Source: a virus (Duplodnaviria > Heunggongvirae > Uroviricota > Caudoviricetes). Taken from it: 56,826 nt of DNA. The translations under genes and the position numbers were made by a program. Under the pieces are notes generated by a model, which was not told the origin of the DNA, did not search any database, and saw nothing but the letters and a program-made list of their open reading frames with translations. The stretch's first letter is position 1. Each line of letters opens with the position of its first letter. Of the stretch, positions 4,483 to 56,636 are shown piece after piece. The stretch lies in IMG/VR virus record IMGVR_UViG_3300042569_001383, positions 88,125 to 144,950 of that record; one strand, 5' to 3'.

Positions 4483-4504
4483 TAGTTACTCCTATGATTT
4501 TTTA

Positions 4505-4513
4505 TATAAATAT
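4505..4513 (-). promoter_or_regulatory. Late promoter motif ATATTTATA
   Basis: Upstream of sheath gene. Confidence 0.7.
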
Positions 4514-16077: not shown

Positions 16078-16092
16078 TCCGTTTCCTTTTTA

Positions 16093-16101
16093 TATAAATA
16101 T
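16093..16101 (-). promoter_or_regulatory. Late promoter motif ATATTTATA
   Basis: Upstream of neck genes. Confidence 0.7.
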
Positions 16102-16766
16102 CAATATGATTCGTTTAAGAGACGCAATATCTCCGTTAACGCTTCGTGTCGATGATTATCTTTTAAAATAATTTCATTCACAAAACGAGATTTCGTAATT
16201 TTAGGAATATCATGTATTGCCGAATCATTTTTAAATTTTAAATCAATCTGATGTTTATCACCAGTTAATATCATGATGCTATCTTTTCCTAAACGAGATA
16301 ATACCATTTGTAATTGTTGTTTTGTTAAGTTTTGACATTCATCCACAATACAAATTGCATTGTCAAATGTACGTCCGCGGAAGTGTGCCAATGAAACTAA
16401 TTCAATGTTTTCTTCCTTTTCCATTTTGTCTAATACTTCCGGTTTGTTGTAAACTTTACGCATATTGCTACGTAATGGAACTAACCATGGATCCATTTTT
16501 TCTGCTAATGATCCTGGTAAAAAACCGTTATCTTCATTTGATACGGTAGGTCTTGTTATGATTATTTTGTTAACTCTACGTTTAAAAAACATGTCCAACG
16601 CAATTTGAACTGCTAACAATGTTTTTCCTGATCCTGCTTGTCCTAATATAAAATTAAAAGGAGTTTCAATTATCCGAGCTTTTGCTTCTCGTTGTTCTTC
16701 CGACAATGATATTGAAAATTTAACATCATTCTTTGGTGGAGTTTTATCCTTGTTTGGAGTTGCCAT
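16101..16766 (-). CDS. phoH: PhoH-family ATPase
   Basis: GQAGSGKT, TRP, GFLPGSLAEK.DPW, RGRTF, IVDECQN, SRLG, GDKHQIDL. Confidence 0.95.
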   Translation of the reverse strand: MATPNKDKTPPKNDVKFSISLSEEQREAKARIIETPFNFILGQAGSGKTLLAVQIALDMFFKRRVNKIIITRPTVSNEDNGFLPGSLAEKMDPWLVPLRSNMRKVYNKPEVLDKMEKEENIELVSLAHFRGRTFDNAICIVDECQNLTKQQLQMVLSRLGKDSIMILTGDKHQIDLKFKNDSAIHDIPKITKSRFVNEIILKDNHRHEALTEILRLLNESY

Positions 16767-18842: not shown

Positions 18843-19886
18843 TTAAATTAATCCTGCTAATTTTTTCCAACGATTTGCCATTTCAAATCCTTCAGATAAA
18901 ATTTGCGTTGTTTCTTTTGACGGTGCTGTCGTACGCGTTGGACGAGATGCTGCTGATTCTTTAACCATTGCACGTTTTTGTGTTGGCTTGTTAAAGCTTT
19001 CTGCTAACGTTGCAAATACTAATTTAGCTTCTCTTGGCGAAACGGCTCTATCAAAGTTTTCGATAACTTTCATTTTTTGACCTTCGTTTAAGTCAAAGTT
19101 ACGGAACAATTTGTTTGTGTAAAGAAGTTTTGCGTTAAGTAAATTTACTTCATTAATTACTGAATTCAAATGTTTAACTGTTCGATACGCTTCTTCTAAG
19201 TTTTTCTCTAATTCTTCATTTTCAGTTTTTAATGCGTCCATTGCTGCTGGATCTTCTGCTGGTGGTTCCATTCCCATGTCAGTTTCACGTAAGATTGCTT
19301 CGATAATTTCGTTGATGTCTTCTTCATTTTCATCGTAATCATCTACCTCAGAACCACTAGGTCGTCCTCCGTCCATTACTGGAAATCCGTCGTCATCTAC
19401 TTCTTCATCATCATAATCGTCAACTGGCTCTCTGTCTGCTGGCATTTCTAATTCTCTTAAAATTTCTTCAAGATTAAGATCATCTTCTGCCGGTGCGTCT
19501 GCGCCAAATTCATCTTCTACCGGAGCTTTTGCACCAAATTCATCACCTAAATCGTCTTCGTCTTCGCCAGCCATTCCAACTTGAAATGAATAGTCTTGAC
19601 CACCAACGTTTGCTGCTAATGTGTCATCTGTCCAATTGAAGTCTTCTTCAGCGCCCATTTCTCCGTCGATTGGTGCGTCTGCACTCATATCAGTATCTGC
19701 ATCTAAATCCATGTTAACATCTACATCATCTTCGCCTTCGATTTCTCCAATTAGCTTAGATTGTAACATGCTTTCAAGTCTAGGTGCAAATGCTTCTTGT
19801 AATGCAAGTTTTGCGTTTGCTAATGCTGTTTCTTTTACTGCTTTAGCATCGGCGATTGCTTGTTTTAGCAAATCTGATTTTGCCAT
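18843..19886 (-). CDS. Prohead core / scaffolding protein (T4 gp22-like)
   Basis: Highly acidic middle region; coiled-coil C-terminus LNEVNLLNAKLLY...IENFD.A....EAKLVF; ends RWKKLAGLI; directly upstream of the capsid gene. Confidence 0.8.
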   Translation of the reverse strand: MAKSDLLKQAIADAKAVKETALANAKLALQEAFAPRLESMLQSKLIGEIEGEDDVDVNMDLDADTDMSADAPIDGEMGAEEDFNWTDDTLAANVGGQDYSFQVGMAGEDEDDLGDEFGAKAPVEDEFGADAPAEDDLNLEEILRELEMPADREPVDDYDDEEVDDDGFPVMDGGRPSGSEVDDYDENEEDINEIIEAILRETDMGMEPPAEDPAAMDALKTENEELEKNLEEAYRTVKHLNSVINEVNLLNAKLLYTNKLFRNFDLNEGQKMKVIENFDRAVSPREAKLVFATLAESFNKPTQKRAMVKESAASRPTRTTAPSKETTQILSEGFEMANRWKKLAGLI

Positions 19887-21318: not shown

Positions 21319-21948
21319 TTATATCCTACATTTTCCATCTTCGCATAATATCGAGGTAATGATACCGTTTACGTCTGCGTATTTATTTTTTGTTATATTG
21401 TTATTAACTGATTCTCTTAGGCCCGTAGGCTTCATAAAAGCACCTTGCGTTGAAGGATTTGATACAAAGTCCCAACATATTAATTCAAAATCTTCTTGTA
21501 CTTCAACTGTGCCTTCATTTCTTAATTCTTTGACAGAACCTAATCCGCGAGATGAAATACCTAAAGTAATTCCGGCTTTGAACAATGATTTTAAAATATT
21601 ACCTGATGGTGTATCTAATATTTGAACTGCTCCTAATAAATCATTGCCTTCCCACCATATTTTTAAAATATTATGAGATACATTGTTTAAATTTACCACC
21701 ATCGATTCTGGGTGATCTAATTCTCCTAATGCACGGTGTTGGTCAATATATTCTTGTTGATATTTTTGACATTCACGCATTAATATATGTTTAGGATATA
21801 CGCGTCCGTTTTGATTTTTAGCACCAGCTCGTTGCAATACACCTTTTACAACATATCCACCCGGAATTCCGTATGAATCTCCAGATTGTTCATTCAATGA
21901 CCCAATTGGACGAAATGGCATATATTCTACAATTAATTGTTTTGACAT
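21319..21948 (-). CDS. Prohead maturation protease (T4 gp21-like, peptidase S77)
   Basis: VKGVLQRAGAKNQNGRVYP, ALGELDHPE, VSHNI, GISSRGLGSV, WDFVSNPSTQGAF. Confidence 0.96.
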   Translation of the reverse strand: MSKQLIVEYMPFRPIGSLNEQSGDSYGIPGGYVVKGVLQRAGAKNQNGRVYPKHILMRECQKYQQEYIDQHRALGELDHPESMVVNLNNVSHNILKIWWEGNDLLGAVQILDTPSGNILKSLFKAGITLGISSRGLGSVKELRNEGTVEVQEDFELICWDFVSNPSTQGAFMKPTGLRESVNNNITKNKYADVNGIITSILCEDGKCRI

Positions 21949-23532: not shown

Positions 23533-23552
23533 ATCGATGTGATACTTTTTTA

Positions 23553-23561
23553 AATAAATAT
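23553..23561 (-). promoter_or_regulatory. Late promoter motif variant ATATTTATT
   Basis: Between portal stop and next ATG. Confidence 0.6.
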
Positions 23562-25398: not shown

Positions 25399-25411
25399 AT
25401 ATTTTTTTTAA

Positions 25412-25420
25412 TATAAATAT
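25412..25420 (-). promoter_or_regulatory. Late promoter motif ATATTTATA
   Basis: Upstream of portal gene. Confidence 0.7.
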
Positions 25421-28384: not shown

Positions 28385-29281
28385 TTATTCTGTTTCTGAT
28401 TCTGTTTCTTTTGGTTGAGTTGATTTTATTTTGCTTAAACGACGTAAAATCATAATTTTTGCAATTCTTAAATCTTTGCTATCTAAATTTCCTAATGCAT
28501 TAGCTAATGGCTCGAATCCAGTATCAACTAAACTGTTAGGTCCGGATTGATCTGACAATGTTTCTTGCCAATATTTCAATGCAATTTTTTGTTTTGCTAA
28601 TTTTTCTTTTGCTTTATCTTCAGGTGTTGCTGTATCTGTTTCATCGCTTGGTTCAGTAACAGTAGCATCTGTTGGTGTATCAGTTGCTGGAGCAGTTGCG
28701 TCTGTAGGTGGCGTTGCAGGTGCAGCAGTATCTACCGGTGGAGTTGCCGGTGCTGTCATATCTGGCGCTGCCGTTGGATCTGTTGGCATAGCTGGTGCTG
28801 CTGGATCTGGTGTAGTAGCATCCGGTGCCGGTTCTGCATTTGGGTCTTCTACTGCATTTGGATCTTCTTGTTCTTCTTGTTCTATTAAACGTTTAACAAT
28901 AGTACGACGTACATATTCTCTAATTAAACGAGTACGTTGTTCTAATGTAAGATTTTCAACTTTATCTTTAATAGAATCTTTAGATTTTTTTGTTTCAGCG
29001 TCTTCGCGTTTCTTTAAACGTTTTGCTGCAATTTTAGGATCATATTCACCGGCTTCTAAATCTTTATAAAGACGATCATCCGCATCATATTTTGGAAACA
29101 TTTTACCGTCATCTTGAACAGCTTTATCTGTTTTACGTAATACGTTAAGTTGTTTATCGCCAGTTGTTTTAGGATTCAATTTACCATCTTTATCATCGTG
29201 TGTATAATCTTTTAAATCTTTACGATAAGTTGGTTTTTTGTTTTCCGGTTTTTTGTATTTACTTTTGTGCTTTTCTGCCAT
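28385..29281 (-). CDS. Putative internal head protein with Pro/Ala/Thr-rich linker
   Basis: Basic N-terminus, RLIEQ junction, repeated PATP/DPTA low-complexity tract. Confidence 0.65.
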   Translation of the reverse strand: MAEKHKSKYKKPENKKPTYRKDLKDYTHDDKDGKLNPKTTGDKQLNVLRKTDKAVQDDGKMFPKYDADDRLYKDLEAGEYDPKIAAKRLKKREDAETKKSKDSIKDKVENLTLEQRTRLIREYVRRTIVKRLIEQEEQEDPNAVEDPNAEPAPDATTPDPAAPAMPTDPTAAPDMTAPATPPVDTAAPATPPTDATAPATDTPTDATVTEPSDETDTATPEDKAKEKLAKQKIALKYWQETLSDQSGPNSLVDTGFEPLANALGNLDSKDLRIAKIMILRRLSKIKSTQPKETESETE

Positions 29282-29301
29282 TGGATATTTCCTATATTTT
29301 A

Positions 29302-29310
29302 TATAAATAT
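29302..29310 (-). promoter_or_regulatory. Late promoter motif ATATTTATA
   Basis: Upstream of the 298-aa gene through terminase. Confidence 0.7.
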
Positions 29311-29311
29311 A

Positions 29312-31807
29312 TCATCGAGTGTATTTCAATACTCCTAGTATCTGATTAACTGGAGCAAATGCCCCTGTCATTTTATATGTATGCCCTCCGTATACAAATA
29401 CAACACCTTCCGAAGGTACAATTGTATCAAACCCTCCTAGTTTTTGTATACGACGAAGTTCTTGTTCTAATTTTTGTATTGTAGCAGGGTCGCCTTTTGT
29501 TTGTAATTCTCTGATAAGTTGTGCTAGTTCAGTTTTAATATCTTGAACTGTTTTGTTAGGATTTGCCGCTAAGTAATTAGATGCATTCTGTAATACAACT
29601 ACTCCTAATCTCAAAAATATATTTTCAAATGGCTCTAGGTTTTGTTTTTTGTATTGTTTGAAATCTTTTTTATCAAATGCATCAACCCAAGCTAAAAATT
29701 CTGGATTCGTAATTTGTTTTTTAAGTATAGATATGTTTGATGATTTATCGCCGAATGCCCAACGATACATTAATGTATTAACTAATTCGTCTGAAATTTC
29801 ATATCCTAATTGTTGTGCTTTTGTTTTGATAACATCACGCCACCACGCTTTGTGATATTCACTAATCAAATCAGTATCTTTTAAATTGTATTTTTGTTGC
29901 AATTGATTAATTTCATTGAAGAATGCCGCTTGTTGGTCTTCAAAATTATATACTCGTCCTAATTTAATACGTTGTGGCGGAATAAATGAAAATGTTTTTT
30001 GCATATGGGCATTTGCATCTTGAATAATTTGTTGCATTAATGCACCGCCGGCTAAATCAGTTAATACCGTAACACCTTTTTCATCATATTCAACTAAATT
30101 GTGAAATTGTAAATGTGCTTTATCATATGCAATTACATTTTTTGTAGCTGGATATATGATTTCCATGTTAGCAAATACTCGTCCATTTTTAAAAATTGCG
30201 TTTAATTTATCTGCTGGTATCATTCTAAACGATTCAGTTAAATCTTCAGCACATGCTCGATATGCTTCTACAACTTGTTTATAACCTTCCGCAGCTTCCG
30301 CTCCATTTTTAGCAACACTTTCTTGATATTTTCTTTCAAAGTCTGCAATAATTTCACTTGTTGTCATTGGATTAATTACAGTACCTTTATTACGAGCAAA
30401 ACCAATTTCACCATTTTTCCATGTTACTTGAATATTTTGGCCATCTGTTTTTTCAGTAACAGCAGCTTCGATATCCAATCGCCCGGCTAATGCTCGAGAT
30501 ACAATTTCTTTCATATCATTAAATGATAATCCGTGATCATCCCATGGGTGAGCCATATGTCCTGCAGCTCCTCCTTCGGTGATAAGTTCACCTTTACCCA
30601 TTGCTGATTCTATTTTATATACAATATCATCCGGATTATTTTTTTGCCATGGACGACGCTGTTTTTTAATTGTTCTAGGAATTAATTCAATCATTTTTTT
30701 GTTTGGATTCCATTGCAACATGAACGGCATATGAATTGGAACATCGAATTGGTAATCGGATCCAACACCGGTAGGACGTTCTAATCGCAGTTGCCTAGCA
30801 ATTTTATCGCCGTATTCTGTTGCTAAATCTTCGAAGAAATCACGAAGTTCATCCATGTATATAGGAGCTTCATTTCTAGGATCATTTAGTCGGTCAATAA
30901 AATGTGTAAACTTGCCTTGGAAATCTACATCAATTCCATACTCAGAAAAGAACCCATCAACTGCTTGTTCGATTGATGCTAATTCGTCACGTGTTATATA
31001 ATTTTCAGTCAATATAGATTCTATTAATTTTGCACCTGCAACTGTTTTTGTAAAATTATCAAAATCATATACAAAAGATTTGCCTCGATTTTTTTCTAGG
31101 AATGACCGTAATTGTTTTATTTTTGAACCATGTCTTGTTGTTTCTTTTGGATTCATTATTGCTTCAAATATATCGTCAACATCGCGATGTAATTCAGTTA
31201 CCCACCATGATTTTGAAAATAAAGATTCGCTTACTCCTCGCAACATGCTCCATATTTTTTTTACAACATCATCAGTTTGATTTGGATATGATGCACGAAA
31301 TGTTTCATAATCGCCATTTGCTAATGCAGCACGAATTGTTGATGCTGATATTGGTTCTCCGTTTGCATATAACAATGGATCGATATCAATGTTTAATTCA
31401 GTTGCATCAATTCCTGCAGGAATCGTACGTCCTTTTTTATCTCCAACTGTTTTATATTTATCTACATTAGGAACAAAATCCTTTGCTCGTACGTAGTCAT
31501 CTCCTTTAGTTGATGCTGCCATTGCAAATCTACCTTTTGCATCAGGTGGCAATGCAAATAGATATTCATATGCTGCCATGATAGGCGAATTAAATTCAGT
31601 TGGTTGAATTGTAATTTTTGGATTTTGATTTAGTAAATTGAATATTTTGATTGTATTTTCTCGAGTGATACCATCACGTTCTTTAGGTCCGATTAATAGT
31701 ATTACGCGTTCCGTTTCTGGAGATTCGGCATATCGTTCTGCTAATGCTAAATGTGCTCCGGTTAGCGGTTTAAACCCGCCAGGAAATAACGTTGTTATTT
31801 TATTCAT
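29312..31807 (-). CDS. Multidomain protein: HIGH-type nucleotidyltransferase + RNase-like domain + ligase-type (KxDG) nucleotidyltransferase
   Basis: PGGFKPLTGAH and ISASTIR (cytidylyltransferase-like); THFIDRLNDPRN domain; EKTDG, ARN, MEI, EGVVF, YKMTG ligase motifs. Confidence 0.75.
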   Translation of the reverse strand: MNKITTLFPGGFKPLTGAHLALAERYAESPETERVILLIGPKERDGITRENTIKIFNLLNQNPKITIQPTEFNSPIMAAYEYLFALPPDAKGRFAMAASTKGDDYVRAKDFVPNVDKYKTVGDKKGRTIPAGIDATELNIDIDPLLYANGEPISASTIRAALANGDYETFRASYPNQTDDVVKKIWSMLRGVSESLFSKSWWVTELHRDVDDIFEAIMNPKETTRHGSKIKQLRSFLEKNRGKSFVYDFDNFTKTVAGAKLIESILTENYITRDELASIEQAVDGFFSEYGIDVDFQGKFTHFIDRLNDPRNEAPIYMDELRDFFEDLATEYGDKIARQLRLERPTGVGSDYQFDVPIHMPFMLQWNPNKKMIELIPRTIKKQRRPWQKNNPDDIVYKIESAMGKGELITEGGAAGHMAHPWDDHGLSFNDMKEIVSRALAGRLDIEAAVTEKTDGQNIQVTWKNGEIGFARNKGTVINPMTTSEIIADFERKYQESVAKNGAEAAEGYKQVVEAYRACAEDLTESFRMIPADKLNAIFKNGRVFANMEIIYPATKNVIAYDKAHLQFHNLVEYDEKGVTVLTDLAGGALMQQIIQDANAHMQKTFSFIPPQRIKLGRVYNFEDQQAAFFNEINQLQQKYNLKDTDLISEYHKAWWRDVIKTKAQQLGYEISDELVNTLMYRWAFGDKSSNISILKKQITNPEFLAWVDAFDKKDFKQYKKQNLEPFENIFLRLGVVVLQNASNYLAANPNKTVQDIKTELAQLIRELQTKGDPATIQKLEQELRRIQKLGGFDTIVPSEGVVFVYGGHTYKMTGAFAPVNQILGVLKYTR

Positions 31808-31822
31808 TATGATTCCGTTTTA

Positions 31823-31831
31823 TATAAATAT
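31823..31831 (-). promoter_or_regulatory. Late promoter motif ATATTTATA
   Basis: Upstream of the 831-aa nucleotidyltransferase gene. Confidence 0.7.
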
Positions 31832-31839
31832 TTGATATG

Positions 31840-34560
31840 TTATTTTATAGGGAATGTAGGTGCGATTGTGCTACTACCAACTTCTCGACTAGTACGATAT
31901 ACAAATTGTTTCATTTTAAATACAGATAATGCACTACCTGGGCTGGCATGATCCACCATCATATATATTCTAACATATTTACCTTGACAGTTTGCAAAAT
32001 TATCTTGTCCAGTTGTTCCTACAGCTACATTACTAGTTAGAGATGTGCCTGTTGTTGCACCAGATAATGCAGTCAATATACTTATACCAGGTGCTGCATT
32101 TAAAGGTTCGGGTATACTCCATGTATCATATCCATTTACTCCGCTTGTGTTAGATGATATTACACTCGCAGATTGTATATACCAACGAGCTCGTAGTGTT
32201 CTGGAGCCAGCAGACGCATTGTAAAATTCAGTAGTCGATGTATATTGTAAACGAGTTTCGCCTGGAAGTATAAATGTTTCAAATATAGATGCAGTTACCG
32301 GTGTTCCATCACTACCAAAATTGGCGCCAGTATGTGTAAATTCATTGCGGTCAAAATATACTACGCGGCCTACGTTTAAGCCATCAACAAATTCATTGTT
32401 GGAATCAAACAATACATTACCGGTATTGTCAACTGCAATAAATGCAGATGCAGTTACGGTGCCATTAGTATTAAGAACAAAACCACTAGATGATATTTGA
32501 AGCAATCCGGTGCTACCACTAATAAATGTTCCATTTGGATTTCCAAAAAAGAAGTTGTTTGTAGCAACATAAATTTCATCATCTGTAGTTGAATAACGAA
32601 AATAGCTAGAAGTATTAAGATATAATTCTAAACCTACACCTGAATATAAATTACCGTATTTTGTTAACGAGCCAGTTAAGGCAGACCCGGACCACAATAA
32701 AAATCCTGGAAAGCCTGCATCAAATCCATCATATCCTAAAGATCGTATAAATCCGGAATTTTTATATCCGCTAATTGCGACTCCCGATTCCAATGAATCT
32801 GCTACATACAATGATCCAGTTAACATGGAATAATCGCCGTCGATATAACGGTTACCACCTTGCCATGATTTATCGTAAAGATATGAAACTTGTTTGCTAC
32901 GAACTCCGTCTACATTGTAATATTCAACTTTGAATGATATTTGATTGTTTGCTTTATGTGGCGTATTAATCAATGAACGTATTCTAGTATAATTCGGCGA
33001 ATATCCGGCATCATTATCTGTTGTAGTTCGTACATCAGCAATTTGCCATGTTCCCGATTCTATCACAAATATCAACGTTGCAGTGCCTTGGTAATCAGTT
33101 TCAAAATTAAATACCATGTCGTCGATGCGTTGTGAGTCAGATGATATTTCAATTTGTCCGATACGTTTGCCTAGTATTTTTGGTAATTCTTGATTGAAAT
33201 AATCAGTTGAATCATATGCAACAGCACTACCAGATACATATACAGATAATTTAGGATTAATTCCGGTGTTATCTCGTGTACCTAATGCATCTATTGTAAC
33301 TTTGTATGATGATGTTGCAATGAATATTCCAGAATATGCTGGTTTCGTTTGTACAATTGTTACAGCATTAAGTGCTGATATATTTGTTGCGTTTGCAATT
33401 TGCATTGCATTGTTAATTGATGCAGTTTCCCATGTTAGTGTAGGAGCAGTGCTGGTTGTTTTACCAACATATGTAAACCCTTCCCAATATGTATCAATAA
33501 CGCTTTGTGATGTAAATATTCCAATGCTAACATCTGGAAATAAAGATGCAGTACTTGATATGAATATTTCAGTTTCTTCTAATTCAACATCATTAACCAA
33601 TTCCCATGTGCCAACCGTACCTTTATTCGTAGTAAAAACTTTGATTCTAGATACGTCGCCAGTTGCTGGTTCTAAACCATTAACTTGTATCAATGCAAAT
33701 GATTGCGAATTTTGTGTAGCTACATATGTAGGAGTTGCTTCATATGTTAATGAAAATGTTGAATTTGCAAATTCCGTATAAACGTGTGGAAAAATACTTT
33801 GGCTACTATACACCGTATACGGCACATCTAACAATGCCGTAGTATCGGATAATATCTTTTTTATCGTTGAGATGTAAGGCGTTGTACTGATTGCGTAATT
33901 AGGCGTAGGCGTAGGATTTTGTGGAGTTGTAATTGTAACGGTTCCTGTTTTCATATCGCCGGTAAATTTACCGCCGGTTAATTCAATAGCAGGTGTTCCA
34001 TTCAATGAAAATAAACGAACTGCTCCTGTAGTGTATGTTGGAAATTGTTGGCTACCGGAATAGATTCGATCTAACTGAACTCCTACTTGTTCAGAAACTG
34101 TTATTTGTGGTATTTTGCTAAATATTATTTCAGATACATTTGATACATTCGGATTCACCGGGACTGTACGAGACCATTTAATGTTAGGACGACCTTGCCA
34201 TGATGTTGGCACTACACCGCCTTGAATTGTTTGTGCTTCCGCAACCAATGTTACAGTGCAATCGCCAGGCGATGTTTCCGAATAAATATAAATTGCAATT
34301 ACGCGAGATTTGTCTTCATCAATATAATCGACTACTTCCGTGTATATCGGATCGTCGTTGTAATCTAATACTTCAACGTTCAATACTCCACCTACTTTTA
34401 AATTAGTAGGATGTCCACGAAGTTTAAATAAATTTTTACCAGCAGTTAATCGAGTTGGAAATTCCGTTATTTGAAAATAATCCGGAGAAGTCAACGAAGT
34501 ATCTTCAAAATAAACTTGTGTAAATTGTAAACCTTTATATATTGCTTCTTTGCGTTTCAT
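31840..34560 (-). CDS. Large virion structural protein (tail/baseplate associated)
   Basis: Beta-rich, S/T-rich 906-aa ORF with its own late motif; no catalytic motif recognised. Confidence 0.65.
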   Translation of the reverse strand: MKRKEAIYKGLQFTQVYFEDTSLTSPDYFQITEFPTRLTAGKNLFKLRGHPTNLKVGGVLNVEVLDYNDDPIYTEVVDYIDEDKSRVIAIYIYSETSPGDCTVTLVAEAQTIQGGVVPTSWQGRPNIKWSRTVPVNPNVSNVSEIIFSKIPQITVSEQVGVQLDRIYSGSQQFPTYTTGAVRLFSLNGTPAIELTGGKFTGDMKTGTVTITTPQNPTPTPNYAISTTPYISTIKKILSDTTALLDVPYTVYSSQSIFPHVYTEFANSTFSLTYEATPTYVATQNSQSFALIQVNGLEPATGDVSRIKVFTTNKGTVGTWELVNDVELEETEIFISSTASLFPDVSIGIFTSQSVIDTYWEGFTYVGKTTSTAPTLTWETASINNAMQIANATNISALNAVTIVQTKPAYSGIFIATSSYKVTIDALGTRDNTGINPKLSVYVSGSAVAYDSTDYFNQELPKILGKRIGQIEISSDSQRIDDMVFNFETDYQGTATLIFVIESGTWQIADVRTTTDNDAGYSPNYTRIRSLINTPHKANNQISFKVEYYNVDGVRSKQVSYLYDKSWQGGNRYIDGDYSMLTGSLYVADSLESGVAISGYKNSGFIRSLGYDGFDAGFPGFLLWSGSALTGSLTKYGNLYSGVGLELYLNTSSYFRYSTTDDEIYVATNNFFFGNPNGTFISGSTGLLQISSSGFVLNTNGTVTASAFIAVDNTGNVLFDSNNEFVDGLNVGRVVYFDRNEFTHTGANFGSDGTPVTASIFETFILPGETRLQYTSTTEFYNASAGSRTLRARWYIQSASVISSNTSGVNGYDTWSIPEPLNAAPGISILTALSGATTGTSLTSNVAVGTTGQDNFANCQGKYVRIYMMVDHASPGSALSVFKMKQFVYRTSREVGSSTIAPTFPIK

Positions 34561-34578
34561 TGCGTTTGATATCTTTTA

Positions 34579-34587
34579 TATAAATAT
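34579..34587 (-). promoter_or_regulatory. Late promoter motif ATATTTATA
   Basis: Upstream of the 906-aa structural gene. Confidence 0.7.
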
Positions 34588-37500
34588 CAAACATGATTTA
34601 TTTGGCTGAAACCGTTATGTTTATCTACATTGATTAATGAATCAACCATATCTCGCATAGAATCTACGTGACTAATTATGATTGAAAAGTCAAATTTAGT
34701 ACGGAAATAATCAAACAAATTAACTACCGATGAAATATGTTCTGAATCTAACGAGCCCCATCCTTCGTCGATTGCAATAAAATTAGGTCTAGGCAATGCC
34801 GATACATTAATCAATGCAATTCTAATTGCCAATGAAGATATAAAACGTTCCATGCCGCTAGTTAATTCTAATGGCCAATAATTATCTTCATCATAAATAA
34901 TGTATCCGTTAATATTTTTACCATCAGTATTCATTACCATGTTGAAATCAACTATTTGGTTAAGTACATTGTTAATTTCAGCTTCAATTTTAGGTAATGC
35001 CTTTGTAACTAATTCATATGGAATTCCATCGCGTTTTACTGATTCTAAATAATATTCATATGCTTTGTATTCCGTTTCCAATGTTCGGTATCGTTCAAGT
35101 TGTTGCATTGCAGTTGATTTTTTTGTTTTTGCAACTTCAATCGCTCCATACATGTTTTTAATTTGAGTTTGAATCGTTTTGATTTCATTGCTAATGTCTG
35201 TAATGTTTTGTTTACATGTAGCAATTTGTTCATTAATTTGTATGTTGTGTTTAATTGCCGTTTCATTTTTCTTGAATGAATCTTGACGTTCAATCACAAT
35301 TTCCAATTCAGACTCGCGGGTTTGCAAATCGCTTTCTAATATTTGTAGTTGTAACTCATTGCGTTCTGCTGTAATATTTTCAGTTGCAAGTTTGTTACGT
35401 AATTCATTTAATTGTTCCGTTTTTTCAAAAACCGGTTTCAATTCTGTTATTTCTGAATTTAAACTTACAATTCGTTGTTTAGTGTTTTCTAATAAGTCTC
35501 TATCTTCTGTAATTGTGTTTTGTGCTTCAATTGCATTTTGTACGAAAACGTTAGATGTACAGTATTTACATTTCGGATCATATTCATGGTCGGAAAGATG
35601 ATTAATTTTTTCTTGTTTAGCATTTACTCGCTCCTGTTGTTGACGTAATTTTTGTAAAAGTATATTAACTGAATATTCTTTTTTCGAATATAATTCGGTT
35701 GCTGCATTAATAGCCGCAATATCATATTCTGCTAATTTTGTTTCACGTTCATCAATATTTGCATGTAACGTTTCTAAATCAAATTCCGCAGTTTCAATAT
35801 CCGTTTGTATTGATTCAATTAATTGAATTAAATCTTGTTCTTGTTTTTTTAATTCGTTGATATCTGGCCCATCATACGTTGTTGGCATTTTAGTTTCAAT
35901 CAATGAAACAATTCGTTCTTGTAAAACATTTCGCTGTTCTTGCAATACATCTTCTTTTGTTTCTAATGTATTAATGTTGTCTTGATTGTCAGAAATAATT
36001 GTGTCTGCAGTTATGATTATATCAGCAAAATCAGTTTTTTTATAATCTTTTAAACGTCCAGCTGTCTCTTTTATTTCATCGGCTGCCAATTGATACAATT
36101 GTTCAAACACCGTGATGTCTAAGAATTGTGAAAGTAAATCTTTGCGTTCTTTTTGCGATTTTTCAATGAAATTGTTATTGTCGGCTTGCAATGAAAATGC
36201 CGTTAAAATGAAATCATCATATGTTCCTAGATAACGACGAATGTTTTTATTTGTTTCACTACGTTCTTCTCCATTAAGATTATCAGCATCGGTATAAAAA
36301 TCCACATCAACTTTTACATGTGATTCTTTCTTTTTATTTTGAGTACCACGACGTTCGATAGTATAAATTGTGCCGTTCATTTCAAAACGAAATACACCTC
36401 GGAACCAAGTTTTTTTGTTGTTTAAAACTTCGTTTGCTTTTCCGGTTTTGCTACATTTATCAAATATCGTATAAGTTATTGCATCTAATAAACTAGATTT
36501 ACCTGAAGTGTTTGCCGCAAACAATCCGCAAACATTTGACAAATTTTCAAAATTAATTAAATTGCCTTCTCCATAAGAAAACATGTTGTCAAATTCAAAT
36601 GATACGGGATGCCATGTAGTATGGCGTATTGATTCTACTGCCGGCAGTTTTGAATTTATAGTTCTATTAATATGTCGTATAGCATCAACTTCTTCTGCAG
36701 TTGCTTGTGGAAAATTTGTATCAATATATTCTGTCAATAAAATATTTTGATATTCAACGTCACGTACATTTCCAATAGCCAAATTATTGCTAGTAGTTGC
36801 TGATGCATGTTCAATTGTGCGTTGAATTGTTATGTCTTGCACATCGTATTTTTTACGAATCGTTGCAATTAATTTTTTCATATCAGCCGCACTAGTGCCG
36901 TTAAACTTGATTCTAATTCTAGGTTTAACTGGCATACGATGTGGATGCGAAACAATTTTATCGCCTTGTGTTTCCAACGTCACATAACCGTAATCATTTT
37001 GTATTTGCGCAAATTCTGCTGTACGTGATTCTAAATCCCATACTAATATTCCATGGTCTAATGCTTCGCCATGATTTTGTTGTATCAAACTACCTGGATA
37101 TGCAATTGTTCTTGCATCATCTAAAAATTGAGCTGGTTTATGAATATCTCCTAACAAAGTAATATCATGTCCTGCAAACAATGCCGTTGTAACATGTTCA
37201 TTTGAAATTTGGTATCCAATATCAGTTTTCGCAGTATTTACAGCGCCATGATGCAATGCAATTTTATAACCTGCTTGAAAATCTTTAGCCATTACGTATT
37301 CAGCTGGCGTTTTATCTACTGCCATATGATTCCAAGTAACGCCTCCTAATTCAAACAATCCGTTCTCTTTAATAAAATAAATGTTTGGATTTCGTATAAC
37401 ATCTAAAACAGGACTAACTGCATCGACGCGATGCATATTATTCAAATTCATGTCATGATTACCAAGAATTACAATTGTAGGAATTGTAAATCCATTAAAA

Positions 37501-37733
37501 AAATCAACTAGCATTTGTACTAGTTCTGGCGACATATCCAATTTGCTATGAACTATATCCCCGGTAACTACTGCTATACTATTTCCGGTGCAATTCGCTT
37601 CAATGTAATCAAATAAATTTTGAAATACCGTACGATATTCGCCATGGCGTTTTAATGTTCTAATATGTATATCAGAAACATGAAATATTTTATCAATTTT
37701 ATCGATTCCGCAATCGATTTGTTTTATGTCCAT
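34587..37733 (-). CDS. Fused Mre11/SbcD nuclease + Rad50/SbcC ATPase (T4 gp47+gp46-like)
   Basis: DIH, TGDIVH, GNHD, HHG, GDIH phosphoesterase motifs; Walker A NTSGKSS; zinc hook CKYC within a coiled coil; TSGME signature; Walker B FIAIDEG; ISH. Confidence 0.93.
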   Translation of the reverse strand: MDIKQIDCGIDKIDKIFHVSDIHIRTLKRHGEYRTVFQNLFDYIEANCTGNSIAVVTGDIVHSKLDMSPELVQMLVDFFNGFTIPTIVILGNHDMNLNNMHRVDAVSPVLDVIRNPNIYFIKENGLFELGGVTWNHMAVDKTPAEYVMAKDFQAGYKIALHHGAVNTAKTDIGYQISNEHVTTALFAGHDITLLGDIHKPAQFLDDARTIAYPGSLIQQNHGEALDHGILVWDLESRTAEFAQIQNDYGYVTLETQGDKIVSHPHRMPVKPRIRIKFNGTSAADMKKLIATIRKKYDVQDITIQRTIEHASATTSNNLAIGNVRDVEYQNILLTEYIDTNFPQATAEEVDAIRHINRTINSKLPAVESIRHTTWHPVSFEFDNMFSYGEGNLINFENLSNVCGLFAANTSGKSSLLDAITYTIFDKCSKTGKANEVLNNKKTWFRGVFRFEMNGTIYTIERRGTQNKKKESHVKVDVDFYTDADNLNGEERSETNKNIRRYLGTYDDFILTAFSLQADNNNFIEKSQKERKDLLSQFLDITVFEQLYQLAADEIKETAGRLKDYKKTDFADIIITADTIISDNQDNINTLETKEDVLQEQRNVLQERIVSLIETKMPTTYDGPDINELKKQEQDLIQLIESIQTDIETAEFDLETLHANIDERETKLAEYDIAAINAATELYSKKEYSVNILLQKLRQQQERVNAKQEKINHLSDHEYDPKCKYCTSNVFVQNAIEAQNTITEDRDLLENTKQRIVSLNSEITELKPVFEKTEQLNELRNKLATENITAERNELQLQILESDLQTRESELEIVIERQDSFKKNETAIKHNIQINEQIATCKQNITDISNEIKTIQTQIKNMYGAIEVAKTKKSTAMQQLERYRTLETEYKAYEYYLESVKRDGIPYELVTKALPKIEAEINNVLNQIVDFNMVMNTDGKNINGYIIYDEDNYWPLELTSGMERFISSLAIRIALINVSALPRPNFIAIDEGWGSLDSEHISSVVNLFDYFRTKFDFSIIISHVDSMRDMVDSLINVDKHNGFSQINHV

Positions 37734-43579: not shown

Positions 43580-43599
43580 ATTGTTTAAACCTTATTTCA

Positions 43600-43608
43600 T
43601 ATAAATAT
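43600..43608 (-). promoter_or_regulatory. Late promoter motif ATATTTATA
   Basis: Upstream of ATG 43579. Confidence 0.7.
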
Positions 43609-54472: not shown

Positions 54473-54485
54473 AATGAAACATTTA

Positions 54486-54500
54486 TATAAATATAAATAT
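54486..54500 (-). promoter_or_regulatory. Tandem late promoter motif ATATTTATATTTATA
   Basis: Two overlapping copies upstream of ATG 54472. Confidence 0.7.
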
Positions 54501-56610: not shown

Positions 56611-56627
56611 AATATAACTTTCTTTTA

Positions 56628-56636
56628 TATAAATAT
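56628..56636 (-). promoter_or_regulatory. Late promoter motif ATATTTATA
   Basis: Abuts the uvsE stop; upstream of ATG 56610. Confidence 0.65.

Follow-up and report, generated by a model that had tools for sequence, protein, structure and literature searches.

We describe here a gene in a 56,826-nucleotide stretch of viral DNA (hereafter the window), which is the right-hand end (57 kb) of an IMG/VR viral contig of 144,950 bp (IMGVR_UViG_3300042569_001383) with an estimated completeness of 86%. The gene lies at 29312..31807 on the minus strand, as do all of the window features given below, and encodes a protein of 831 amino acids (protein P0001) plus a stop codon. Our analysis indicates that it encodes a fusion of a predicted PPAT/NMNAT-type adenylyltransferase, a RegB/RelE-fold endoribonuclease-like domain and a divergent RNA-ligase-type nucleotidyltransferase, and that the product may well be a head-delivered polyprotein that is packaged and cleaved. 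What was computed is the fold of each domain, how far the catalytic motifs and the junction sites are conserved, the modular make-up of the family and the gene order shared with the head module and its protease; the enzymatic activities, the substrates, cleavage and packaging are inferred. Each kind of domain is already known and what is new is an RNA-ligase-superfamily clade joined to a HIGH adenylyltransferase and a RegB-like domain.

A preliminary description of the window had called the same three domains and proposed a toolkit that is made late and possibly packaged and cleaved. The reading frame, the motifs that it quoted and the codon of the proposed active-site lysine (30449-30451) are all present, predicted folds as well as profile searches speak for the three domain calls, and its interpretation is partly supported, being largely borne out for folds and architecture.

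All of the genes on the contig are carried by one strand and there are 23 tRNA genes. The phage has a Gp23-type capsid protein and a Peptidase_S77 head protease of the T4 gp21 family. Judged by its capsid protein it is closest, among cultured phages, to Flavobacterium phage 'immuto' (57%) and Microcystis phage Mel-JY01 (55%), and more remotely related to Rhodothermus phage RM378, and on this sequence evidence the phage is therefore assigned to a 'far-T4' lineage.

The 831-residue protein has at least 1892 homologues, every one of them annotated as 'hypothetical'. Searched against cultured phages with tblastn, three pieces of it match separately: residues 1-193 in Lak megaphages, residues 229-384 in Melnitz and Paraglaciecola phages, where the match is a standalone open reading frame (ORF) of ~149 amino acids, and residues 400-831 in two huge uncultured phages and in Mel-JY01. 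With the whole protein Pfam gave no real match and PHROGs gave weak matches only, while phmmer and profile searches of PDB sequences with the whole protein, the C-terminal module and the middle domain returned spurious entries only (eS6, GNAT, Hpr). In the searchable literature we found no earlier description of the fusion and no mention in this regard of DUF6267, 'cytitidyltransferase' or Mel-JY01, and the surveys of jumbo phages and of NAD+/ADPr systems from the Aravind laboratory do not mention the fusion.

A divergent RNA-ligase-type module at the C-terminus

The C-terminal module (C-module, residues 412-831; 29315..30574) has a predicted covalent nucleotidyltransferase fold of the RNA-ligase type and is the constant module of the family. 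Motif I, EKTDG (residues 452-456; 30440..30454), contains Lys453, the predicted AMP acceptor, and is followed by ARN (471-473), MEI (548-550), FH (568-569) and then motifs IV and V, EGVVF (800-804) and YK (811-812), within the segment EGVVF...YKMTG (residues 800-815; 29363..29410), which lie on adjacent strands of the model. Among 145 divergent C-modules about 40% identical to that of the window we found K453 to be conserved in 98%, D455 and G456 in 100%, R472 in 100%, E549 in 99%, F568 in 87%, H569 in 98%, E800 in 98%, G801 and K812 in 100%, and T814 and G815 in 99%. All of these except F568 belong to a set conserved at 94-100% which also takes in G412, G413, G416, H417, H420, E452, A471, N473, N557, Y561 and F804.

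An AlphaFold2 model of the C-module, built from a 72-sequence alignment, has a predicted local distance difference test score (pLDDT) of 92 and a predicted template modelling score of 0.89, and places motifs I, Ia, III, IIIa, IV and V on consecutive strands in canonical order. Two helical insertions, one of about 60 and the other of about 200 amino acids, break up the motif strands; the larger is an all-helical segment between motifs IIIa and IV (residues ~587-789, 29441..30049; model residues 188-390) that structural alignments to ligases skip. The model lacks an OB domain at the N-terminus, and beyond motif V it shows no further domain, the protein ending 19 residues later. Foldseek searches of the PDB and of BFVD agree in ranking RNA ligases above DNA ligases, the structural matches covering the nucleotidyltransferase (NTase) core only.

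The closest known systems are the ATP-dependent RNA ligases, namely the Rnl5 enzyme NgrRnl (5cot), fungal Trl1-LIG (6n0t/9qw7), T4 Rnl2 (2hvq), T4 Rnl1 (9do4) and REL1 (1xdn). The C-module shares with these near-invariant motifs I (KxDG), Ia (RN), III (E), IIIa (FH), IV (EG) and V (K) in the canonical order, as well as the lack of an OB domain after motif V. Unlike them it carries its two unique helical inserts, a conserved N-terminal GGAxGHMxHP motif and a single lysine in motif V, and its model shows no sign of the accessory domains by which Rnl1-Rnl6 are defined. The Pfam model RNA_ligase (PF09414) scored 14.2 bits against a cut-off of 27 (E 3.6e-3), in the motif I region only, and no solved ligase was matched by the C-module in PDB sequence and profile searches. 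On its modelled fold we accept the C-module as a predicted RNA-ligase-type covalent nucleotidyltransferase, and on these sequence searches we place it outside every named clade.

The C-module family is virus-only. An exhaustive search of 1.84 billion cluster representatives recovered 2714 clusters of relatives (clustered at 50% identity), of which 572 reach E 1e-30 or better. Within the ligase superfamily it makes up a highly abundant branch, confined to viruses, that no Pfam model or solved structure recognises by sequence and which databases label 'hypothetical' or 'cytidyltransferase-like', and its unusual insert architecture could interest enzymologists as a new source of RNA ligases. A cultured carrier exists in Microcystis phage Mel-JY01, whose protein (WWT39297, 639 amino acids) has the junction IAE|GG.

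A HIGH-signature adenylyltransferase domain at the N-terminus

The N domain (residues 1-192; 31232..31807) has a HIGH-signature adenylyltransferase fold of the PPAT/NMNAT kind. It contains PGGFKPLTGAH (residues 9-19; 31751..31783), a T-x-G-H variant of the (T/H)xGH nucleotide-binding signature, and the second signature, ISxTxxR, as ISASTIR (residues 153-159; 31331..31351), with P9-G-G-F-K-P14, H19, S154 and R159 invariant in its subfamily. Intermediate relatives have PGGFKPPHGGH in place of the first signature, and canonical N domains across the family read GRFQPFHxGH...SGTxxR, SGTxxR being the consensus of the second signature. The domain is modelled with a pLDDT of about 95 and its Rossmann-like fold matches solved HIGH-signature members, while a profile of 20 N-domain sequences matches PPAT chains at E 2e-6. 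PF01467 (CTP_transf_like) scored 12.4 bits on the N domain itself, below the gathering cut-off of 21; relatives linked by jackhmmer pass this model in 34 of 58 N-terminal extensions. We found no second HIGH-NTase in the contig.

Both signatures are shared with PPAT and with the NMNATs NadM and NadD, and the TGAH variant is a form also found in PPAT. The N domain differs from these in its GGFKP first strand, in an extra insertion of ~40 amino acids (residues ~105-145) and in its fusion to RNA-acting domains. By modelled fold it is a putative PPAT/NMNAT-type adenylyltransferase.

A RegB-like domain in the middle

The middle (M) domain (residues 271-400; 30608..30997) has a RegB/RelE-type endoribonuclease-like fold, modelled with a pLDDT of about 90. 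The motif THFIDRLNDPRN is found at residues 301-312, and within it HFIDRLNDPRN (residues 302-312; 30872..30904) forms an invariant polar cluster and candidate active site, in which the M family shows no variation at H302, F303, R306, N308, D309, R311 and N312. Two alignments of the protein (A3 and A4) were dropped as MAFFT had scattered distant N-domain fragments onto M-domain columns, and a further one (A5) was used.

The structure searches for this domain used a two-domain model, in which matches to the N domain fill most of the entries. Against viral models Foldseek matched it to RegB, annotated as 'site-specific RNA endonuclease' (E 9.3e-5, probability 1.0, template modelling score 0.67, 137/140 columns), thus spanning nearly the whole RegB chain. 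Comparison of the M family with the RegB family profile in hhalign was only marginally significant (P 5e-4, probability 31%) and places H302-x-x-D305-R306 onto H48-x-x-D51-R52 of RegB; with the single T4 RegB sequence the M profile gave no significant match (E 0.24). RegB is a cyclizing RNase with a RelE/YoeB-like fold and the catalytic residues His48 and His68 (PMC3014915). The preliminary description had rated the RNase-like call as the weakest of its three, and the fold match now backs it, HxxDR being placed on the catalytic His48 in the marginal alignment.

In common with T4 RegB (PF10715), the M domain belongs to a phage protein. It departs from RegB in its own invariant residues N308, D309, R311 and N312, in sitting within large fusions or standing alone as the short ORF of marine phages, and in the timing of its expression, which is probably late where RegB is early. 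We consider a RegB-like fold quite probable, while the domain has roughly even chances of being an active RNase. Two relatives of 871-873 amino acids (P0063 and P0105) carry a CxxC...CxxC zinc-ribbon of ~40 amino acids between the RegB-like domain and the ligase module.

A constant ligase module with varying partners

Comparison of family members shows a constant C-module preceded by varying N-terminal partners. The C-module is the conserved part in 147/151 top representatives and is nearly always at the extreme C-terminus, with N-terminal extensions of 0-1583 amino acids. An iterated search found a HIGH-NTase in 114 of the 151 (about 75%), and among the partners identified in 58 representatives CTP_transf_like accounts for 34, so that a HIGH-NTase is the usual partner of the ligase module. 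The remainder include kinases of the Zeta_toxin and AAA_33 families (4 each), PolyA_pol (CCA-type) with HD (2) and an ADP-ribosyltransferase (ART; 1), with DUF5661 and, by language-model features (Atlas), a Pol-beta NTase as further partners. As a group these other partners, among them the P-loop kinases, are classic RNA-repair enzymes. A natural split version also exists in which the HIGH-NTase and the ligase module are two nearby genes.

A possible relative of the C-module is Pfam DUF6267, known from T4-like cyanophages and pelagiphages. The Atlas feature score for this family is 0.96, and a colinear pattern of GG..H..H, KxDG and EG.V...K can be seen by eye. PF19782 (DUF6267) itself matched neither the 831-residue protein, nor its genome, nor any of the 10 family representatives scanned, and hhalign comparisons were not significant either with a single sequence or with a profile (E 0.23, colinear alignment), so kinship is hinted at by the Atlas features but not established. 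DUF6267 genes are widespread in T4-like cyanophages and occur in 410 phage records. In Synechococcus phage S-CAM4 (L015:3525-5236) a DUF6267 gene overlaps the start of a 'cytitidyltransferase' gene, a conserved pair that mirrors the fusion. The recurrent pairing of a HIGH adenylyltransferase with a ligase, whether as a fusion, as a split pair or as the cyanophage DUF6267 and 'cytitidyltransferase', points to an uncharacterised biochemical coupling.

Conserved linker sites and possible packaging in the phage head

The domains are joined by two linkers. Linker 1 (residues 193-270; 30998..31231) is helical with low confidence or disordered, with a pLDDT below 50 at residues 193-197, 213-218 and 244-267, and contains LIESILTE (residues 261-268; 31004..31027), which comprises two tandem (L/I)xE sites. 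At the second junction ITE|GG (residues 409-413; 30569..30583), disordered in the model, a further (L/I)xE site directly precedes the C-module. LIE263 is kept in 104/112 close relatives, LTE268 in 103/112 and ITE411 in 105/112 (92-94%), all three in disordered linker segments where pLDDT is below 50. This supports the protease-type sites that had been proposed at LIESILTE and LITEGG. The third proposed site, GVSES, is neither (L/I)xE nor conserved and was ruled out.

Similar sites recur in more distant relatives. An (L/I)xE stands directly before GGAxGH in 101/131 divergent representatives, standalone C-modules have leaders of only 10-29 amino acids that end in (L/I)xE, and 58 of 63 N-terminal leaders of relatives carry it where roughly 11 would be expected (an estimate from background density). 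Upstream of the M domain it is present in 13/23 against 3.5 expected. The leader consensus is MNELSKFLIESILGE, and the same motif is internal in the 831-residue protein at residues 260-268.

A candidate processing enzyme is the product of the prohead protease gene at 21319..21948 (Peptidase_S77, T4 gp21 family; Pfam 112.9 bits, phrog_207 E 2e-56). Peptidase_S77 is also present in the contigs of divergent family members, and 4/5 of these share the slot of the fusion gene upstream of TerL, Portal_T4, Peptidase_S77 and Gp23, the order being primase, SbcCD-like protein, a protein of ~800 amino acids, the fusion gene, small genes, terminase, Portal_T4, Peptidase_S77 and Gp23. In the contig of one family member of 1985 amino acids the Peptidase_S77 gene (L011:24112-25836, 574 amino acids) is apparently split by an intein, with the Pfam order Peptidase_S77, Intein_splicing (weak) and Peptidase_S77.

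The motif that had been noted as a late promoter of the gene is present. This promoter-like sequence, ATATTTATATAAAA, is found 10 nt before the ATG (31818..31831), and there are 11 copies of it with at most one mismatch, every one on the minus strand, where 0.62 would be expected. The copies are located just upstream of gene starts at 1280-1293, 4500-4513, 16088-16101, 23548-23561, 25407-25420, 29297-29310, 31818-31831, 34574-34587, 43595-43608, 54481-54494 and 56623-56636, and the genes preceded by it include those for the portal, for the adaptor and for the adjacent proteins of 298 and 906 amino acids. It probably marks the late promoters of the lineage.

In T4, enzymes such as Alt are packaged by means of a capsid targeting sequence (CTS) and processed by gp21 at L/I-x-E (PMC9026906). 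Compared with T4 IPI-III and Alt and with the 'polyvalent proteins' of phages, the fusion likewise comes from a phage with a T4-type head and a Peptidase_S77, has exposed L/I-x-E sites, has relatives with CTS-like leaders and is a putative enzymatic cargo encoded beside head genes. It is unlike them in that the candidate cargo consists of RNA-acting enzymes and an adenylyltransferase and that the leader-like motif is internal. In addition a 'cytidylyltransferase' has been detected by mass spectrometry (MS) in purified virions of the cyanophage S-CREM2 (PMC10665884).

The chances that the fusion protein is cleaved and packaged appear evenly balanced. The earlier proposal of a late-made, packaged and cleaved protein has circumstantial support from the gp21-family protease, the conserved linker sites, the leaders of relatives, the head synteny and the virion 'cytidylyltransferase'. 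The gene is probably transcribed from the late-type promoter of the phage along with the head genes. Under the packaging reading the T4-type prohead would take up the protein, and the gp21-family protease would then cleave both disordered linkers, one after E263/E268 and the other after E411. The separated enzymes would then enter the next host cell together with the DNA, where the RNase domain would cut RNA, the ligase module would rejoin RNA breaks such as those that host anticodon nucleases make in tRNA, and the adenylyltransferase would supply or process some adenylylated substrate. More tentatively, and with rather less confidence, we suggest that a large 'far-T4' lineage of uncultured aquatic phages packs an RNA-acting kit as one polyprotein, that the gp21-type head protease cuts this at its (L/I)xE junctions to release a RegB-like RNase, a PPAT/NMNAT-like adenylyltransferase and an RNA ligase from a new clade, and that these are injected and act before phage expression in host mRNA shut-off and pre-emptive tRNA repair. 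As part of that same suggestion the locus behaves as a cargo-swapping locus in which kinases, CCA-adding enzymes and ARTs interchange before the constant ligase module. If processing and packaging are true, capsid cargo would extend from ARTs and anti-restriction proteins to enzymes of RNA repair and cleavage, and the recurring 'cytidylyltransferases' of cyanophage virion proteomes would be accounted for.

A number of observations weigh against processing, packaging and the proposed roles. The CTS of T4 is N-terminal, and in the 831-residue protein the NTase strand comes first (MNKITTLFPGG), with no CTS-like leader ahead of it. The total of (L/I)xE in the protein is not enriched (9 against 8.8 expected), and a genome-wide scan for the double-site motif gave 2 matches against 1.08 expected, which is not significant. 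LxC or LxM rather than LxE precedes GGAxGH in 26/131 representatives (20%), and the motif may therefore be structural and not a cleavage site. For the M domain, PF10715 (REGB_T4) has no match in the genome even at E 10, and the position of RegB His68 is without a conserved counterpart in the M family. A cut of the RegB type leaves 2',3'-cyclic phosphate and 5'-OH ends, which an ATP-type ligase cannot seal without healing enzymes; there are none of these in the 831-residue protein. Repair by the fusion protein could also be made redundant by a canonical RNA-repair cassette elsewhere in the phage, described below. The virion MS data concern distant cyanophage proteins that may or may not be related to the fusion protein, and such proteins are frequent in cyanophage virions, where the authors warn of co-purification (PMC10665884).

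The absence of a leader, the LxC/LxM variants, the unenriched site count and the double-site scan also favour an alternative in which the protein is a cytoplasmic multi-domain enzyme of RNA repair or processing that is made late and is neither cleaved nor packaged. The (L/I)xE-GG would then belong to the ligase module itself, as a motif at its N-terminus, the leaders being ordinary amphipathic helices, and it is general knowledge that repair fusions such as Pnkp/Hen1 and Trl1 normally work whole. We regard this as somewhat unlikely, since conservation of the sites is concentrated in linkers and leaders that are otherwise unconserved and disordered, the gene always co-occurs with a gp21-type protease and adjoins the head module, and the natural split-gene version indicates that the modules can work as separate proteins.

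Other proposed activities

The preliminary description had also raised regeneration of NAD as a defence against NAD-depleting systems. Here the N domain would restore NAD+ as an NMN adenylyltransferase and might supply it to a ligase module that uses NAD, and the family-wide signature GRFQPFHxGH...SGTxxR does resemble the signatures of NadM-type NMNATs. Phage NMNATs that act in NAD+ salvage are known (PMC9503650). Against this the subtype found in the window has lost the Arg and Gln of GRFQP and has GGFKP instead, no Nampt/NAPRTase gene was found in the 86%-complete genome, the ligase module has no LigA-type match and resembles ATP-dependent RNA ligases in fold, and the remaining fusion partners are enzymes of RNA repair and not of NAD metabolism. 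The proposal thus lacks genomic support and we judge it improbable.

Still less probable is that the C-module is the DNA ligase of the phage, serving replication or the sealing of genomic nicks. This would fit the position of the gene just downstream of the primase and the SbcCD-like nuclease and the failure of the DNA ligase models PF01068 and PF01653 to match anything in the contig, which at 86% completeness is no evidence on function. The ranking of RNA above DNA ligases in both structure searches, the end of the protein shortly after motif V without an OB domain and the RNA-repair modules among its fusion partners all argue in the other direction, and a host ligase could serve the phage. 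RNA capping by a guanylyl- or adenylyltransferase, which had likewise been suggested and which shares the KxDG covalent nucleotidyltransferase superfamily with ligases (established knowledge), is very improbable, as no capping enzyme was among the top 50 matches of either structure search and an OB domain is missing.

A second RNA-repair locus and neighbouring genes

A complete canonical RNA-repair cassette is present outside the window at ~23.9-27.4 kb of the contig (loci L003 and L005), near the tRNA cluster. It encodes a PHA02142-OB plus RNA_ligase protein of 385 amino acids with an Rnl5-like architecture, a PolyA_pol/CCA-type NTase (245 amino acids), a cREC cyclic-phosphate-processing domain (135 amino acids), an AAA_33 kinase (128 amino acids) and a HAD_PNKP phosphatase (149 amino acids), with a Cpn60-like fragment adjoining. 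The fusion protein is therefore a second ligase-type enzyme of this phage, one with a late-type motif and located beside head genes. The cluster of 23 tRNAs lies at 12.8-17.3 kb of the contig, all on the minus strand, and none of them is within the window.

Directly downstream of the fusion gene, 28385-29281 encodes a protein of 298 amino acids with its own promoter motif, which is highly charged with a low-complexity centre rich in Pro, Thr and Ala, has no family match and may be head-internal or scaffold-like. On the upstream side 31840-34560 encodes a protein of 906 amino acids of no known family, in the ~800-residue slot conserved among relatives, and 34587-37733 a 1048-residue single-chain fusion of SbcD-like and SbcC-like parts (Metallophos plus SMC). 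The sole other protein of the genome with a tandem (L/I)xE motif (IIEAILRE) is encoded by a 347-residue ORF at 18843-19886, directly upstream of the Gp23 capsid gene in the position of the T4 gp22 scaffold, and has no Pfam or PHROG match. A PhoH-like ATPase gene (16101-16766) lies between the capsid and adaptor genes, and in a related phage contig a homologue of ribosomal protein S21 is encoded inside the head gene region (L013:15545-15772).

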